Positions 3,004 to 8,468 of a stretch of DNA of 8,799 nucleotides are shown here, one piece after another. The first letter of the stretch is position 1. Every line of letters begins with the position of its first letter. This DNA comes from a virus. Taxonomy: Duplodnaviria; Heunggongvirae; Uroviricota; Caudoviricetes. The position numbers and the translations under genes were made by a program. Location of the stretch: IMG/VR virus record IMGVR_UViG_2534681774_000024, one strand, 5' to 3'. Under the pieces are notes generated by a model. That model was given only the letters and a program-made list of their open reading frames with translations. It ran no database searches and had not been told where the DNA came from.

Positions 3004-3246
3004 ATGGGCAAAGAATATAAAACTCTCATTAACAAAGCACTTGAACGATTTTATTTTCGCTTAAGTGCATCAGGCGCTCATGCTGAACGTGCAGCCCGTG
3101 ACTCATTGACCAGGGCAATCCGGAGTTTGTATGACGTCGCTTTTTACGCTGATGATCTGGATGCACTTAACGAACTTTCCGAGCTGATCTGTGCCGCAGA
3201 ATGCGGGGAACATATTGAACCGTATAAGCTGGGGAATATCGCATGA
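3004..3246 (+). CDS. Hypothetical early-operon protein (80 aa)
   Basis: ATG 3004 with AAAGGG 7 nt upstream. Its stop overlaps the start of the next small ORF in an ATGA arrangement. Confidence 0.5.
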   Translation: MGKEYKTLINKALERFYFRLSASGAHAERAARDSLTRAIRSLYDVAFYADDLDALNELSELICAAECGEHIEPYKLGNIA

Positions 3247-3356
3247 GTATATTTATCTCATGGCTTGTTCTGATTATTTCGGTGGCCTGCGCCATTGGAA
3301 TTATGCGAATTATTCATTCAGTAAAAAAGATTGAACGTTTTTTCACTGGTGAATAA
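3243..3356 (+). CDS. Small single-pass membrane peptide (37 aa), not in the supplied ORF track
   Basis: ATG 3243 overlaps the stop of the upstream gene (ATGA); GGGGA lies 7 nt upstream. The translation is MSIFISWLVLIISVACAIGIMRIIHSVKKIERFFTGE: one hydrophobic helix followed by a short basic tail. Stop TAA is at 3354-3356. Confidence 0.45.
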   Translation: MSIFISWLVLIISVACAIGIMRIIHSVKKIERFFTGE

Positions 3357-3450
3357 CGATACAAATAAAACATCAAATTAAATAAGAAAACGTGAAAACC
3401 ATCCGTATTAACGGAGGTATTCGCACACGCAAATAACGGAGATACAAAAA

Positions 3451-3861
3451 ATGCACGCAAAAGAAGAAGGTATCATCAGAGCACTGAAAGAAATTTCAAA
3501 GACAGAAAACGAAGTAGCGAAAAAAGCCATAGCAAATAATCATATGGACGTCGCAACCCACACACTGATAGTCGCAAGAGTCACGGCAGAAGCAGCCGAA
3601 ATTATCGCAAAACAGGATGCTGAACTGGCGGTTCTCAGAACACAACCAGTCACCGGACTGGATTTGTCTAACACCGGACGCCTTATTTACACAATTGGCT
3701 CGGAGCTACAGCGATACACCATTATCGCCGGGTTACAGGATAAATACCTGATCACTCCTCACCCCATAAGGGAATCAGAAATTCTGACAAATCTCCGCCT
3801 GATAGAGCGCTCTCAAGTCGCATTCATTGATGACGCACAGTGCACCGTATTTAACGCATAG
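3451..3861 (+). CDS. Hypothetical protein (136 aa) whose 5' end lies in an AT-rich islet
   Basis: ATG 3451, preceded by a duplicated AACGGAG motif and a roughly 95-bp AT-rich non-coding stretch. No family recognised. Confidence 0.5.
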   Translation: MHAKEEGIIRALKEISKTENEVAKKAIANNHMDVATHTLIVARVTAEAAEIIAKQDAELAVLRTQPVTGLDLSNTGRLIYTIGSELQRYTIIAGLQDKYLITPHPIRESEILTNLRLIERSQVAFIDDAQCTVFNA

Positions 3862-3884
3862 AGTTACTGGACAAAGGGGGCGCA

Positions 3885-4088
3885 ATGGCAATTAAGCATT
3901 TTCCCGTCGTTCGCTTTACCTCCAGAGGGCGCGAATACGAGGTCGACGAACGCCTGATTACCACTATCGACAAACATCGTTCGGAAAAGGATGCACACCA
4001 CATCTACCTCACTGACGGCACTTACTTCTGCGCCACTAATGTGGCGCGGGTAAACCTTATCCGACAGGTACAGGAGCCACGCAGATGA
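3885..4088 (+). CDS. Hypothetical protein (67 aa)
   Basis: ATG 3885 with AAGGGGG upstream. Its stop overlaps the next start (ATGA at 4085-4088). Confidence 0.5.
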   Translation: MAIKHFPVVRFTSRGREYEVDERLITTIDKHRSEKDAHHIYLTDGTYFCATNVARVNLIRQVQEPRR

Positions 4089-4351
4089 CCATTCTGGACT
4101 ACATCGCTACTCATCCGGGGTGTAGCGGCGGAGAGATCGCCGCAGCACTGAATACTCCAACCACAGCCATTAATGCTGAGTTACGCCAACTTTGGCGCGG
4201 CGGCTTAGTCATCAGAACAAACCGCAGCACAGGTGGTCGCGCTCGCAAAACTGGAGGCCAGGCTTCTTACCACGTAAACCCGATGCCGTTCGGGTGTAGC
4301 AATCCACTTACTCACATGTTTAACCAGCTACTGAAGGAAGCCAGAACATGA
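4085..4351 (+). CDS. Putative winged-helix DNA-binding protein (88 aa)
   Basis: ATG 4085 with AGGAG 8 nt upstream. The N-terminal LDYIATHPGCSGGEIAAALNTPTTAINAELRQLWRGGLVIR looks like a winged HTH by pattern. Translationally coupled on both sides. Confidence 0.5.
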   Translation: MTILDYIATHPGCSGGEIAAALNTPTTAINAELRQLWRGGLVIRTNRSTGGRARKTGGQASYHVNPMPFGCSNPLTHMFNQLLKEART

Positions 4352-4647
4352 GCACCATCAACCACCAGAAGCTACGCGAACTGGCATTTGCCCTGCAACG
4401 AATGGCAACACCTCAAAAATTACTGGCATTTCGCGCAATGCTCTCGCCGTCTGCTGCGCTGGCATTGCTGGATGAGCTGGAGCACGCCAGAACCACGGCT
4501 CCTGCCATTCGCCTGACGCTCCATCATGAAATCGCTGATTTCTGCGCGACATTGGAGGTGCCAGGCGAACCGGAAACGCCGGAAGCAATACAGCAAGAGC
4601 TGCTGCAACGTATTGACAAGGTTTTTGATTTTTTTCTGAACCAGTAA
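4348..4647 (+). CDS. Hypothetical protein (99 aa)
   Basis: ATG 4348 with GAAGGAAG 7 nt upstream, overlapping the upstream stop (ATGA). It is the last gene before the structured non-coding gap. Confidence 0.5.
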   Translation: MSTINHQKLRELAFALQRMATPQKLLAFRAMLSPSAALALLDELEHARTTAPAIRLTLHHEIADFCATLEVPGEPETPEAIQQELLQRIDKVFDFFLNQ

Positions 4648-4665
4648 GAAACCAGAGCATGCACA

Positions 4666-4793
4666 CACAAAAAAACCGCTTGCCATGCCGCAATCAGTCA
4701 GGTTACATTTCCGCTGCACCTCATAAAACGGGTGCCGGGTTTCGCAGCCTGCTGACTACAAGAGCGCACAACCGCGCCAGCGGTTTTTTTGTG
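4666..4793. repeat. Perfect 15-bp inverted repeat pair (CACAAAAAAACCGCT at 4666-4680; reverse complement at 4779-4793) bracketing 98 bp
   Basis: Read directly from the sequence. Each arm contains a run of seven A (or T) next to CCGCT/AGCGG. Confidence 0.7.
4770..4790 (+). terminator. Candidate intrinsic terminator: AACCGC-GCCA-GCGGTT hairpin running into T7
   Basis: A 6-bp stem (4770-4775 / 4780-4785) with a 4-nt loop, followed by a T-run through 4790. The stem is short, so this is tentative. It sits about 120 bp downstream of the stop of ORF 4348-4647. Confidence 0.35.
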
Positions 4794-4969
4794 CGTACTG
4801 TATTGCCACGTTTTTTTCGCGTCAGAATTATGGCGGGGCGTACGGGGCCGACTTCGGTCGGGCCGGGATCTCTTGTAGCCGGTACTGCGAACCTCGTACG
4901 TCTCGCCACCCACAGTTTCGCAGCTCTGGATGGTGAGTTTTCACAACTTACTACAAGAGGCCACATATC

Positions 4970-5200
4970 ATGGCAAACCGCAAACAGCACCGCACTATCG
5001 CGGAGCGTCGTCACATCCAGACTGAAATCAACCGCAGACTTTCCCGCGCATTCCGCGTCGCTAAAATCATGCACATCAATATGCTGCATGAGCGTAGCTG
5101 CGAACTTTCAAACCTCTATTCATCCGCTGTTTTCAGCTATCTGGCGGATGATCTGCGCGAGCTTCAACAGCTCATCCAGCAGCAAAACAAACTCCATTAA
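4970..5200 (+). CDS. Hypothetical protein (76 aa), predicted helical
   Basis: ATG 4970 with AAGAGG 9 nt upstream. The product is Arg/Gln-rich but protein-like, whereas the overlapping frame (ORF 4659-5276) is Ser/Arg-rich and low-complexity. Confidence 0.5.
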   Translation: MANRKQHRTIAERRHIQTEINRRLSRAFRVAKIMHINMLHERSCELSNLYSSAVFSYLADDLRELQQLIQQQNKLH

Positions 5201-5272: not shown

Positions 5273-5638
5273 ATGATTCTCGCCAACGACTTTCTTGAAT
5301 ACCTGCTCAACACAGAACGTGATCTTGCCGCTCGCGTGCGTGATCGTTATGACATGTACCTGAAATCCCTGCCTGTACCGCAGCTCGCTGACGGAAAGAT
5401 TGTTATTGATGGTCGCTACATGATTGACAGCCACGAGGGAAATTACAGGCTTTACCGCATTGAAGGTGGCACCCCGTCCGTTATTGGCATTTACCAGCGC
5501 CCATCCTCTGCAATCGTCGATGTGATTGCCGACAGCATCCGCATCACACATCGCCATGCCGACACAGAAGACACCGTGCTGGAAATTCAGCGGCTGGCTG
5601 CCGTCTGCCGCGACACCCTGAATGGCATGACGAAGTAA
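5273..5638 (+). CDS. Hypothetical protein (121 aa) immediately upstream of gene A
   Basis: ATG 5273 with AAGAGG 9 nt upstream. Its stop is 6 nt before the gene A start. Confidence 0.5.
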   Translation: MILANDFLEYLLNTERDLAARVRDRYDMYLKSLPVPQLADGKIVIDGRYMIDSHEGNYRLYRIEGGTPSVIGIYQRPSSAIVDVIADSIRITHRHADTEDTVLEIQRLAAVCRDTLNGMTK

Positions 5639-5644
5639 ATCACT

Positions 5645-8468
5645 ATGACGGCAGAGTACATCAGGGACTGGCAACAACCGCGCCACGCAGTGGGACGTGA
5701 AGGAACGGGGATCCCCGTTCCTGAATCTGCGCTTTCTTCCTGGCTGGATGCCTACCGGGCAGAGAACGAGCGCCGCCAGGAAATGGCTGATGCGGCGTTC
5801 TCCGCCACGCCGCTGGGCAACCTGATTAATAAAAGCCTGGATGCACAGGAAAAACAGGACAAAACCATCACACTGGCAGGAGACGCCAGAAAACAGGCAC
5901 GCGGCGCGGTGGATGAAGCCATGGCCTCGCTGCGCCTGCTGCCGTCCTATCTGCGCGATCCGCTTATTCGCCACCTCTCCTTCCTGCGCAAAAAACAGGA
6001 AGTCGATCGCCGGAAAGGCAAAAAGAGCTGGCAGGCTGAACGCTACGCGCGCGGAACCCTGCGCAAAATATTCGAACGTCTGGACCGCACCGACCACCGC
6101 TGGCTGACACCGGGTTATCGCTCCCTTGCCGGACGCGAACGCCTGGATGATTTGCTTTACCTGCCGCAGCTCAACAAGCACCAGATACAGACGCTGGCCA
6201 CCATGACGGCGGCGATGTTCAGCAGCACCTTCGAAAAACTCTGCGATGGCTTTGGCGCGACTGATGGCGAACTGACCATGGATGTAACGCTGAAGGCGTA
6301 TCAGATGCTGGCCCGCATGGCGTTACACCTGCACGCCATGCCTCCACATTATGACGCACTGACAACAGACAAAGACCGGAGGAACGAACCGGACACGGAG
6401 CTGCTGCCGGGCGCAATCCTTCGCCTGACCTGTGCGGAATGGTGGAAACGCAAACTGTGGCTGTTACGTTGCGAGTGGAGAGAAGAACAACTCCGCGCCG
6501 CCTGTCTGGTTTCCAGAAAAACATCACCCTATCTGAGCCAGGACGCGTTAAGCGAGTTTCGCGCACAGCGCGAGAAAACACGCGATTTCCTGAAAAGTTT
6601 CATGCTGGAAAATGAAGACGGGTTCACGATTGATCTCGAGACAGTGTATTACGCGGGAGTAAGTAACCCGGTTCACCGTAAGGCAGAAATGATGGCCACC
6701 ATGAAGGGACTGGAACTTCTGGCCGAAGCCCCGTGGCGACAGAGCGGTGTTTCTGACTGTCACCTGCCCGTCAAAATACCACGCAACAACGGAGAACGGT
6801 CATCCGAACCCCAAATGGAACGGGGCCACCATGCGCGACTCCAGCGATTACCTGGTTAACACGTTTTTTGCGGCGGTCCGCAAAAAACTGAACCGCGACG
6901 GCCTGCGCTGGTATGGCATCCGCACGGTGGAGCCTCACCATGACGGAACCGTGCACTGGCATATGATGGTCTTTGCCCATCCGGAAGAAATCGACACCAT
7001 TGTGTCCCACACCCGCGATATTGCCATTCAGGAAGATCGTCACGAGCTGGGCGATGATATTACTCCGCGCTTTAAGGCGGAGTATGTAGACGGCTCAAAA
7101 GGCACGCCAACCAGCTACATCGCCACCTACATCGGAAAGAACCTGGACAGCCGCGCCGTGGATGGCATCGACCCGAAAACGGGCAAGCCACGCGTTGACC
7201 ACGAAACAGGAAAATCAATGGCCGAGAGCGTGGAGCGCGCCATCGGCTGGGCGCGCCTTCACCGGGTCCGCCAGTTCCAGTTCTTTGGCATTCCCTCCCG
7301 TCAGGTGTGGCGTGAACTCCGCCGCCTTGCCAGCCAGATGGCACGCAACCCGGAAGGCCCGCAACGGCTGAAGGATGACGCAATGGATGCGGTTCTTGCT
7401 GCCGCTGATGCCGGGTGTTTTGCCACCTACATTGAAAAACAGGGTGGCGTACTTGTTCCGCGCAAGGACTACCTGATTCGCACCGCCTACGACCTCGCAG
7501 ATGAGCTGAACGATTACGGCGAACAGAGTGTACAGATTTACGGGATCTGGTCGCCATTCATCGGGGAATCCTCCCGTGTGTGCACGCATCCGGATAACTG
7601 GAAGCTGGTAAGACGTAAACCGGAAGCGGAGGACAGCGCCCGCGAAAATGGTTTTGACCTTCAGGGCGGCCCTGCCGCCCCTTGGACTCGTGGCAATAAC
7701 TGTCCCCGTGTACAGGAAACGGACAACAACGGGACAGAACAGTCGGAAGAACGGCCAGCACCGTGGCCGCAGCTCCCTGACGGCGTTGAAGTGAACGAAT
7801 GGATGCGCTCACTGAAACGGCACGAACGCCGGGCGCTGATGCGTTCGCTTCGTGACAAACAGGCAAAAAACAGCAGTGATGAAATGCAGAGCTGGACACA
7901 GAGCCGCAAACAGCAGTGGCCTTTGCCTGATAACCACGAATTACTCGCTAAAGAATGGCGGAAGTCTGCTGAATCTCTCGGCCTGCATATCGGTGAACAA
8001 CAGATGCAGCACCTGTTACGGGGCGGCAGTCTGTACGTTGACGGCAGCATCATTGCACCGCAGGGATTTGAAATTGTACGCAAACCGGATACCCGCCCGG
8101 ACAGTCGAATCACGCAGCTCTGGCAGCGCCTGAGCCGTAATCATGGCGTAAGCAGCACGGAGATCCGCCATAACCCGGTCGCCAGCTATCTGGCACAGCT
8201 GGGGGCATCAGACCCTGAAGCCGCCGCACGCCTGGCATCCACACTTCAGCAGGACCAGAACACCATGAAAACACCCGTTACCGTGCTTTCTGACATGCTG
8301 CGCGCCATCCGCGACGCAGAGCACGCACAGAGAATCAGTGAAATCACTGAACGCGCCAGCCGCAAAGCAGACCTGCTGCGGGGTGGCCTGACCAGCGGAA
8401 ACAAAAAACAGACAGAAACGGGACTCACGAATCCCGTAAATGAGCAAAAAACGCGCAGCGATATATGA
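5645..8468 (+). pseudogene. A: P2 gene A-type rolling-circle replication initiator (HUH endonuclease), read in two frames with a frame change near 6729-6732
   Basis: ORF 5645-6859 (frame 2) and ORF 6747-8468 (frame 0) overlap by 113 nt. The downstream part carries FLTVTCPS, the HUH motif in GTVHWHMMVF, and a paired-tyrosine motif TSYIATYIGKN, matching what I recall of the P2 A / Phage_GPA family. Frame 0 is open from 6705. Removing one C from the CCCC run at 6729-6732 gives a continuous reading ...[27 protein letters not shown]... The 6747 start in the ORF track is a GTG inside this reading. Confidence 0.75.

Follow-up and report, generated by a model that had tools for sequence, protein, structure and literature searches.

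The window analyzed here, a stretch of 8,799 nucleotides, represents the early region of a prophage of the P88-like type (Xuanwuvirus, Peduoviridae, P2 family) and is collinear with phage P88 and its relatives, which share the order int, C, cox, DUF4761, DUF4754, a block of three small genes (hereafter, the triad), and gene A. The integrase (587-1585) and the C-type repressor (1619-1936) are encoded on the minus strand. The repressor gene is followed by genes for a Cox-like protein, DUF4761, a 92/112-aa ORF, DUF4754, a 136-aa ORF, and the triad; past the triad lie the isrK and C4 RNAs and the genes for a 76-aa 'derepression' protein, a 121-aa Orf83-like protein, and the replication protein A. 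The immediate upstream neighbour of the triad, the 136-aa protein of unassigned function (3451..3861, plus strand; phrog_9338), ends 23 nt before ORF1. The presence of this gene varies independently of the triad, and its alleles are highly divergent.

The triad consists of ORF1 (67 aa; 3885-4088), ORF2 (88 aa; 4085-4351), and ORF3 (99 aa; 4348-4647), all on the plus strand, and the ATGA stop-start joins reported in the original prediction are both present, at 4085-4088 and 4348-4351. All three ORFs are real coding genes. Each matches a protein family of the PHROG collection end to end (ORF1, phrog_3459, 1e-45; ORF2, phrog_1687, 7e-32; ORF3, phrog_4144, 3e-61), and each start codon has its own Shine-Dalgarno-like motif, namely, aaaggggg (3872-3880) for ORF1, aggag for ORF2, and gaaggaag for ORF3. 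Pairwise dN/dS values against diverged alleles indicate purifying selection on all three genes (0.04-0.21 for ORF1, 0.24-0.29 for ORF2, and 0.20-0.33 for ORF3).

Of 5426 complete E. coli genomes, 1264 contain the 763-bp block, with at least 80% of its length covered in 1041 of these; many copies, among them those in ST131-type prophages, are 100% identical. A simple consensus scan of positions 3057-4680 predicted no sigma-70-like promoter on the plus strand, and the sole terminator-like match in the same range is weak and lies inside the upstream 136-aa gene (3646-3661). With no promoter predicted in this range, the block is most simply taken as part of the Pe early transcript, and we infer that the triad is co-transcribed from Pe as a member of the early operon.

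ORF1 (3885..4088; pI 9.4; phrog_3459), the member that stays constant where the block varies among P88-like prophages, encodes an orphan small protein with no match in Pfam, NCBIfam, or PADLOC. The family is tiny: it comprises 65 clusters at 90% identity, essentially all from Escherichia, and of the species-representative genomes scanned, only 3 carry ORF1. When 1.84 billion representative proteins were searched with a profile, only 16 clusters were recovered, all of them close relatives, and no distant family emerged. The confident AlphaFold2 model (pLDDT 87) is all-beta, with five strands, and Foldseek searches of the PDB and BFVD with this model gave weak matches to small barrels of the Sac7d/Sso7d, Tudor, and FlbD-like types (E values of 0.01-0.2). 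We did not accept homology to any of these SH3-like barrels and take the matches (best E value of 0.01) as a fold class. A link to the FlbD-like 74-aa protein that adjoins the Klebsiella homologue of ORF2 was likewise rejected (hhalign probability of 0.5%). As modelled, ORF1 is a lineage-specific small basic beta-barrel that belongs to a narrow orphan family.

The winged helix-turn-helix (wHTH)-like N-terminus that had been noticed in the middle ORF was borne out by profile comparison. ORF2 (4085..4351; pI 10.0; phrog_1687) matches Pfam MarR_2 over residues 2-53 (4088..4243) with an E value of 1.1e-6 and 29.1 bits, above the cut-off of 27, and also matches HTH_24 (3.8e-4). The wHTH core carries an Arg/Lys/Gly-rich wing, which in the window contains a 7-residue insertion compared with the 81-aa P88 allele; ORF2 alleles of 88, 81, and 79 aa occur, and their identity ranges from 60 to 100%. 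Invariant and near-invariant alignment columns delineate a C-terminal tail, NPMPFGCSNPLTHMFNQLLKEAR (4280..4345), with the strongly conserved pattern PFGxxNPLxxMFNQLLKxxR, which is the signature of the family. This tail is common to homologues from three other phage lineages, that is, Stx phages, Klebsiella RothD, and Serratia Eta, at 33-44% aligned identity.

Databases annotate ORF2 as a member of the MarR family, with which it shares the wHTH core above the MarR_2 threshold. However, MarR family proteins are about 140-160 aa long, and their N- and C-terminal helices form an obligate dimer interface, whereas in ORF2 nothing precedes the wHTH, and the match covers the wHTH part of the profile only. 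Because 88 aa leaves no room for the MarR dimerisation helices, we classify ORF2 as a stand-alone wHTH protein rather than a MarR regulator. There was no full-length match of ORF2 to any solved MarR structure: the best sequence matches in the PDB had E values of 0.1-0.9, and those to MarR proteins were at 0.4 or worse. ORF2 probably binds DNA. Repeat and promoter scans in and near the block gave no convincing repeated motif that could serve as an operator for ORF2; the structured repeats found by the repeat scan all belong to the isrK/C4 module described below.

Beyond the MarR family, ORF2 shows a distant resemblance to lambda Ren. Both are stand-alone winged-helix proteins, of some 90-100 aa, encoded in early operons of temperate phages. 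Lambda Ren matches phrog_1687, the family of ORF2, at 1.5e-10, and a Klebsiella relative of ORF2, which occupies the ren position after gene P, matches the Ren family phrog_142 at 9.5e-8. Direct comparisons yielded weaker signals: ORF2 itself matches phrog_142 (Ren-like exclusion protein) at E=0.042, and hhalign of the ORF2 family alignment against lambda Ren gave a probability of 63.7% and E=6.7e-5 over the wHTH only. The PFGxxNPLxxMFNQLLK tail characteristic of the ORF2 family is absent from Ren, and the genomic context of ORF2 is P2-like whereas that of Ren is lambdoid. Through these intermediates, ORF2 might be indirectly and distantly linked to Ren at the level of the wHTH. Ren reportedly lets lambda escape Rex exclusion, as Toothman and Herskowitz are said to have found in 1980, and this weak resemblance is the sole hint at the anti-defence role that had been proposed for the block. 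That proposal gained nothing from database searches: PADLOC produced no match to the triad, and among the defence, toxin, and antitoxin models of PADLOC, Pfam, and NCBIfam, ORF2 elicited wHTH-level noise (E values of 0.007 or worse), and ORF1 and ORF3 matched nothing.

ORF3 (4348..4647; pI 5.5; phrog_4144) is predicted to be an all-helical, chimeric protein that combines an Ead/Ea22-like N-terminal module with a separate C-terminal helical module. The N-module (residues 1-47; 4348..4488) is homologous to the N-terminal module of the Ead/Ea22 proteins of Stx lambdoid phages: in the hhalign comparison with the Ead_Ea22 protein of phage Stx1_499, which itself scores 2.2e-20 on PF13935, 47 columns aligned with 57% identity, at a probability of 98.1% and E=8.6e-14. 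On the Pfam Ead_Ea22 profile (PF13935), ORF3 scores 20.7 bits, which is below the cut-off of 27, and the match is confined to profile positions 57-86. The N-module also matches phrog_250 and phrog_368.

The C-module (residues 50-99; 4495..4644), delineated using tblastn and translations, is an acidic helical hairpin that is unrelated to Ea22 and is found only within P88-like phages. In Chuche-type phages and a Salmonella prophage, this module is joined to a different, Arg-rich N-terminus, and the respective gene directly follows ORF1; the 72-aa protein of Chuche matches positions 34-97 of phrog_4144. The AlphaFold2 model of ORF3 consists of four helices (pLDDT 84), and Foldseek detected no meaningful fold match in the PDB (best E value of 1.7). 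Structure prediction, a route that the original prediction proposed for all three proteins, supplied confident single-chain models of ORF1 and ORF3 and no significant PDB fold match for either. Lambda Ea22, a tetramer, is defined by a coiled coil and a dimeric C-terminal domain (PMC10834534). Both the long central coiled coil and the dimeric C-terminal domain are absent in ORF3, with its four predicted short helices. ORF3 and the Ead/Ea22 genes are alike in that they belong to early operons and are located amid small mosaic ORFs. The probable role of ORF3 is that of a small adaptor of the Ea22-like kind.

To characterize the composition of the block, we compared 88 ORF1-carrying loci, which were picked by high ORF1 identity and are phylogenetically non-independent and skewed towards close relatives. 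Most of these loci (about 65 of the 88) have the full triad. In about 16 loci, ORF1 is accompanied by the 72-aa C-module protein and ORF2 is absent, and a few loci encode ORF1 and ORF2 without ORF3. Across the loci, ORF2 alleles are 60-100% identical while ORF1 is conserved at 80% or more. ORF2 and ORF3 are dispensable in naturally occurring phages that seem to be complete, for example, Chuche and 520873, and lambdoid phages encode ORF2 together with Ea22-type genes in genomes that lack ORF1. The three genes do not, then, co-occur wherever one of them occurs.

These distributions bear directly on the claim of the original prediction that the overlaps imply fixed stoichiometry, with a regulator and two partners. 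In its strong form, this would mean an obligate three-protein regulatory complex, held at a fixed ratio by translational coupling and serving anti-defence or host take-over. Such a complex would account for the perfect conservation of the 4-nt overlaps (71/71 related loci for ORF1/ORF2 and 63/63 for ORF2/ORF3), for the full triad being the commonest architecture, and for the complementary charges of the basic ORF1 and ORF2 and the acidic ORF3, and the remote resemblance of ORF2 to lambda Ren would fit an anti-defence role. We nevertheless consider it quite unlikely. The ATGA overlap downstream of ORF1 is also present in phage Chuche, where the next gene is different; ORF2 and ORF3 are each missing in some otherwise collinear phages; lambdoid phages pair ORF2 with Ea22-type genes without ORF1; and there are zero PADLOC matches. 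Furthermore, overlaps of this kind are normal in P2-type early operons: in the window, DUF4754 and a 37-aa ORF also overlap by ATGA, and in P2, genes overlap at 5 of the 7 junctions between orf78 and A. Because the ORF1 overlap is kept whatever partner follows, it reflects operon packing. The translational coupling is real, but it does not argue for a complex of fixed stoichiometry, even if the prevalence of the full triad and the perfectly conserved overlaps are compatible with a physical complex. Judged by gene distribution, the triad is a set of genes that are shuffled independently between phages and not a fixed three-part machine.

The other phages that encode an ORF2 homologue with the same C-terminal tail show a recurrent neighbourhood. 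In Stx1 phages, the homologue resides in the early-left accessory/recombination arm and is followed by DUF4752 and then by two Ead_Ea22 genes (Pfam E values of 4e-10 and 2e-20). In RothD-type phages of Klebsiella, gene P of the replication region immediately precedes the homologue, which thus occupies the place that ren has in lambda; in RothD itself, the next gene, which is annotated as Ead/Ea22-like, overlaps the wHTH gene by 4 nt. Among about 80 loci in RothD-related viral contigs, a 150- or 174-aa gene of related type is the first one downstream in 52 and the second in 17 more; these genes were typed by the shared C-terminal motif ENxALK...TPATD...GIKADGVEEF and not by a profile scan. In Serratia Eta, the homologue follows bet and precedes a coiled-coil gene. 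Given this recurrent wHTH/Ea22 adjacency and the homology of the N-module, ORF2 and ORF3 together look like a lambdoid-type cassette, and the comparison suggests that ORF2 and the Ea22 N-module entered the P88 lineage in this form. Part of this adjacency might stem from how densely Ea22-type genes populate accessory regions. One could go further and propose a conserved two-protein module, made up of an Ead/Ea22-type protein and the small winged helix with its tail (phrog_1687), that is mobile between lambdoid and P2-like temperate phages and controls lysis/lysogeny or counters exclusion by a host or prophage system in the manner of Ren, with ORF1 as a lineage-specific third component or adaptor in P88-like phages; at present, we regard this extension as unlikely.

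The slot occupied by the block, between cox/apl and A, corresponds to that of orf80-83 in P2 and CP80-84 in phage 186, which, like the triad, are small, overlapping ORFs, mostly with unassigned, non-essential functions; the 186 record annotates CP80-84 as 'not essential'. The original prediction set the triad apart from known P2 early-gene families, and this separation holds: when the triad profiles were compared with all ORFs of at least 40 aa in the early regions of P2 and 186 (hmmsearch --max), the best E value was 0.17. Nearby, the only family shared with the P2/186 slot is that of the 121-aa DUF5405/Orf83-like gene (5273-5638), which is only weakly matched and lies outside the triad. The accompanying statement that none of the three proteins belongs to a nameable family survives insofar as there is no match to P2 early or replication proteins, but it does not extend to ORF2, which passes the MarR_2 threshold, or to the N-terminus of ORF3, which is homologous to Ead/Ea22. 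A search of the literature on Xuanwuvirus, Ea22-like proteins, isrK, and P2 orf80/81 retrieved no paper on these three genes.

The same location, in the replication-proximal slot between cox and A, also raises the question of whether the block is a replication accessory that helps gene A set up rolling-circle replication, for instance, through the loading or recruitment of host factors, and substitutes for the P2 B/Orf81-type functions that are missing. No B homologue was seen in this region of P88-like phages, the RothD-type homologue of ORF2 directly follows gene P as ren does in lambda, and Ren has been described as 'likely involved in DNA replication' and as an interactor of Rex proteins (bioRxiv 10.1101/2021.04.19.439022). 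Still, a replication function of the block seems improbable to us considering that the triad proteins show no similarity to P2 B, Orf80-83, or the 186 early proteins; that ORF2 and ORF3 are dispensable in the natural phages Chuche and 520873; that the genes filling this slot in 186 are annotated as non-essential; and that the ORF2 homologue of Stx phages is located in the early-left arm, away from the replication genes.

Downstream, a structured non-coding gap bounds the block, as originally described, and this gap turned out to be a known element. It encodes an isrK-like RNA (4716-4790, plus strand; Rfam, 66.7 bits), with a terminator at 4770-4785, and a C4 antisense RNA (4826-4913, plus strand; Rfam, 81.1 bits), both above the gathering score, and is followed by the gene for the 76-aa 'derepression' protein (4970-5200; Pfam PF25738 Derepression, E=4e-7), the ribosome-binding site of which is covered by a target-like repeat of the C4 RNA. 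The element is analogous to isrK and P4 CI/seqA (PMC4825925). From these sequence features, isrK/C4 is best described as a separate RNA-immunity module that is predicted to control the derepression gene, with which it travels. The module is present without ORF2 or ORF3 in three of the compared loci (L008, L009, and L070) and is missing in another one (L006) that has ORF1 and ORF2. ORF2 could conceivably regulate the module; their co-occurrence is strong but is explained by linkage, and the two are separable in these four loci.

Directly downstream of the block, there is an insertion hotspot that in P88 and a Salmonella prophage harbors SPFH/membrane genes. This surrounding, together with the resemblance of small overlapping genes with a wHTH member to toxin-antitoxin operons, could be accommodated by a prophage-expressed toxin-antitoxin or defence (moron) cassette, in which ORF2 would be the antitoxin or regulator, the other proteins would be small effectors, and the lysogen would benefit. 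We find this very hard to credit, with no toxin, antitoxin, or defence family detected in Pfam, NCBIfam, or PADLOC, with no promoter of its own predicted upstream, with the block lying inside the lytic early operon and oriented like it, and with its members shuffled independently.

The triad is better compared with the accessory regions of lambdoid phages. Ea22 proteins of lambda and Stx phages are early, non-essential, and pro-lysogenic (PMC7093339, PMC10834534), and both ea22 and ren of lambda score as non-essential (PMC10695390). P2 Orf82 and lambda Orf73 are both TraR/DksA-like (PMC9239242), which shows that a common pool supplies genes to the P2 slot and to the exo-xis region. Taken together, the position of the triad, its mosaicism, and its family ties suggest that it is to the P2 family what the exo-xis/nin accessory genes, early and non-essential modulators of host physiology and of the choice between lysis and lysogeny, are to lambdoid phages. 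Starting from three coding genes with assigned families, a mosaic distribution, and a winged helix that recurs beside Ea22-type genes, we therefore regard it as on balance probable that the triad represents non-essential accessory genes of the Pe/cox-to-A early operon of P88-like prophages, rather than an obligate complex, and that these genes modulate early development in the way the exo-xis and nin genes of lambda do. Both the non-essentiality and the modulatory role are inferred by analogy with these better-known regions.

Under this accessory-gene scenario, a lambdoid-type cassette, in which an Ead/Ea22-type gene comes after a small Ren-like winged helix, would have recombined into the slot, giving rise to the chimeric ORF3. 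The triad genes would be transcribed together upon infection or induction, and their local translational coupling would be a consequence of tight gene packing in the early operon. ORF2 would use its basic wing and its recognition helix to bind nucleic acid, and a small helical adaptor of the Ea22 type would be provided by ORF3. The triad proteins would most likely fine-tune early development by affecting the lysis/lysogeny bias, host physiology, or the set-up of replication, although any one specific target is far less certain than this general scenario.

About one in four complete E. coli genomes harbors the block, which is also present in ST131 prophages. It is ordinary accessory sequence of phages, coding and with entries in databases already, and the present analysis would reclassify it: instead of a new three-part system, it would be the P2-family counterpart of the exo-xis/nin regions, assembled from the same shuffled parts, among them a Ren-like winged helix and modules of the Ea22 type. 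If the pairing of the winged helix with Ea22-type proteins has no functional significance, the triad is ordinary phage dark matter. If the pairing is functional, it would provide a handle on the mechanism of the Ea22-type pro-lysogenic proteins, which would be relevant to the induction of Stx phages.

The 67-aa all-beta protein ORF1 is also represented by near-identical copies (90-96%) in records bearing Gram-positive species labels, namely, contig NZ_JBQPOM010000071.1 (locus L008, labelled 'Vagococcus sp.') and protein P0015 ('Enterococcus faecalis'). The early region of L008 is P88-like and collinear with the window, with a truncated ORF2 and no ORF3. Most likely, these labels reflect contaminated or mislabelled assemblies rather than the true host range.

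Compared with the 81-aa allele of P88, the 88-aa window allele of the winged-helix protein ORF2 contains 7 extra residues in the wing (RTNRSTGGRARKTGG vs RKERKTGG; residues ~45-51, window 4217-4237). This insertion looks like a local duplication, and it could shift the DNA-binding specificity between the two alleles. In Chuche-type phages, ORF2, isrK/C4 and the derepression gene are all missing, and ORF1 is directly followed, with an ATGA overlap, by a 72-aa protein in which a markedly arginine-rich N-terminus (MSRRRITRRHHRTRL), reminiscent of RNA-binding ARM peptides, is fused to the C-module of ORF3. Proteins of this type containing the C-module are encoded in loci L005 (3701-3919) and L009 (5195-5377).

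The spacer between ORF3 and isrK, short in the window (4648-4715), is an insertion hotspot among the relatives, with inserts in loci L001 (3884-4914), L009 (5411-6441) and L003 (4239-4790). In P88 and a Salmonella prophage, the spacer holds genes for a 67-aa membrane protein and an SPFH/Band 7 lipoprotein, and in Citrobacter phage Shae_phiSM, a gene for a 183-aa HTH protein; these genes are possible moron or defence cargo. Elsewhere in the early region, a 37-aa hydrophobic ORF (MSIFISWLVLIISVACAIGIMRIIHSVKKIERFFTGE; 3243-3356), which the P88 annotation lists as a membrane protein, shares an ATGA overlap with the end of DUF4754.

The replication gene A (5645-8468) is broken into two ORFs (5645-6859 and 6747-8468) because of one additional C in a C-run at ~6729-6732, as judged against a 98%-identical phage in which the gene is intact (2823 bp). 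The split gene is either a pseudogene, in which case the prophage is defective, or the result of a sequencing error. Homology of the integrase to its relatives ends at approximately residue 296 of 332, so that int appears to have been truncated or altered by an IS66-family insertion; the int/IS66 junction is a second sign, after the split gene A, of a degenerate prophage. The IS66-family transposase fragment lies on the plus strand (46-666), directly adjoining int at its 3' end (site 46-700).

The region downstream of the triad (4663-5200) is an RNA immunity module resembling P1 immI and P4 CI, comprising an isrK-like RNA (4716-4790; terminator, 4770-4785), a C4 antisense RNA (4826-4913) and a 76-aa protein of the Pfam family 'Derepression' (4970-5200), with promoter-like sites at 4680-4709 and 4803-4831. 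A 21-nt inverted repeat (4663-4683/4776-4796) flanks isrK on both sides, and the second copy of a direct repeat (4752-4770/4947-4965) covers the ribosome-binding site of the Derepression gene. The module lies between the early accessory genes and the replication gene A and, therefore, may gate read-through into gene A.
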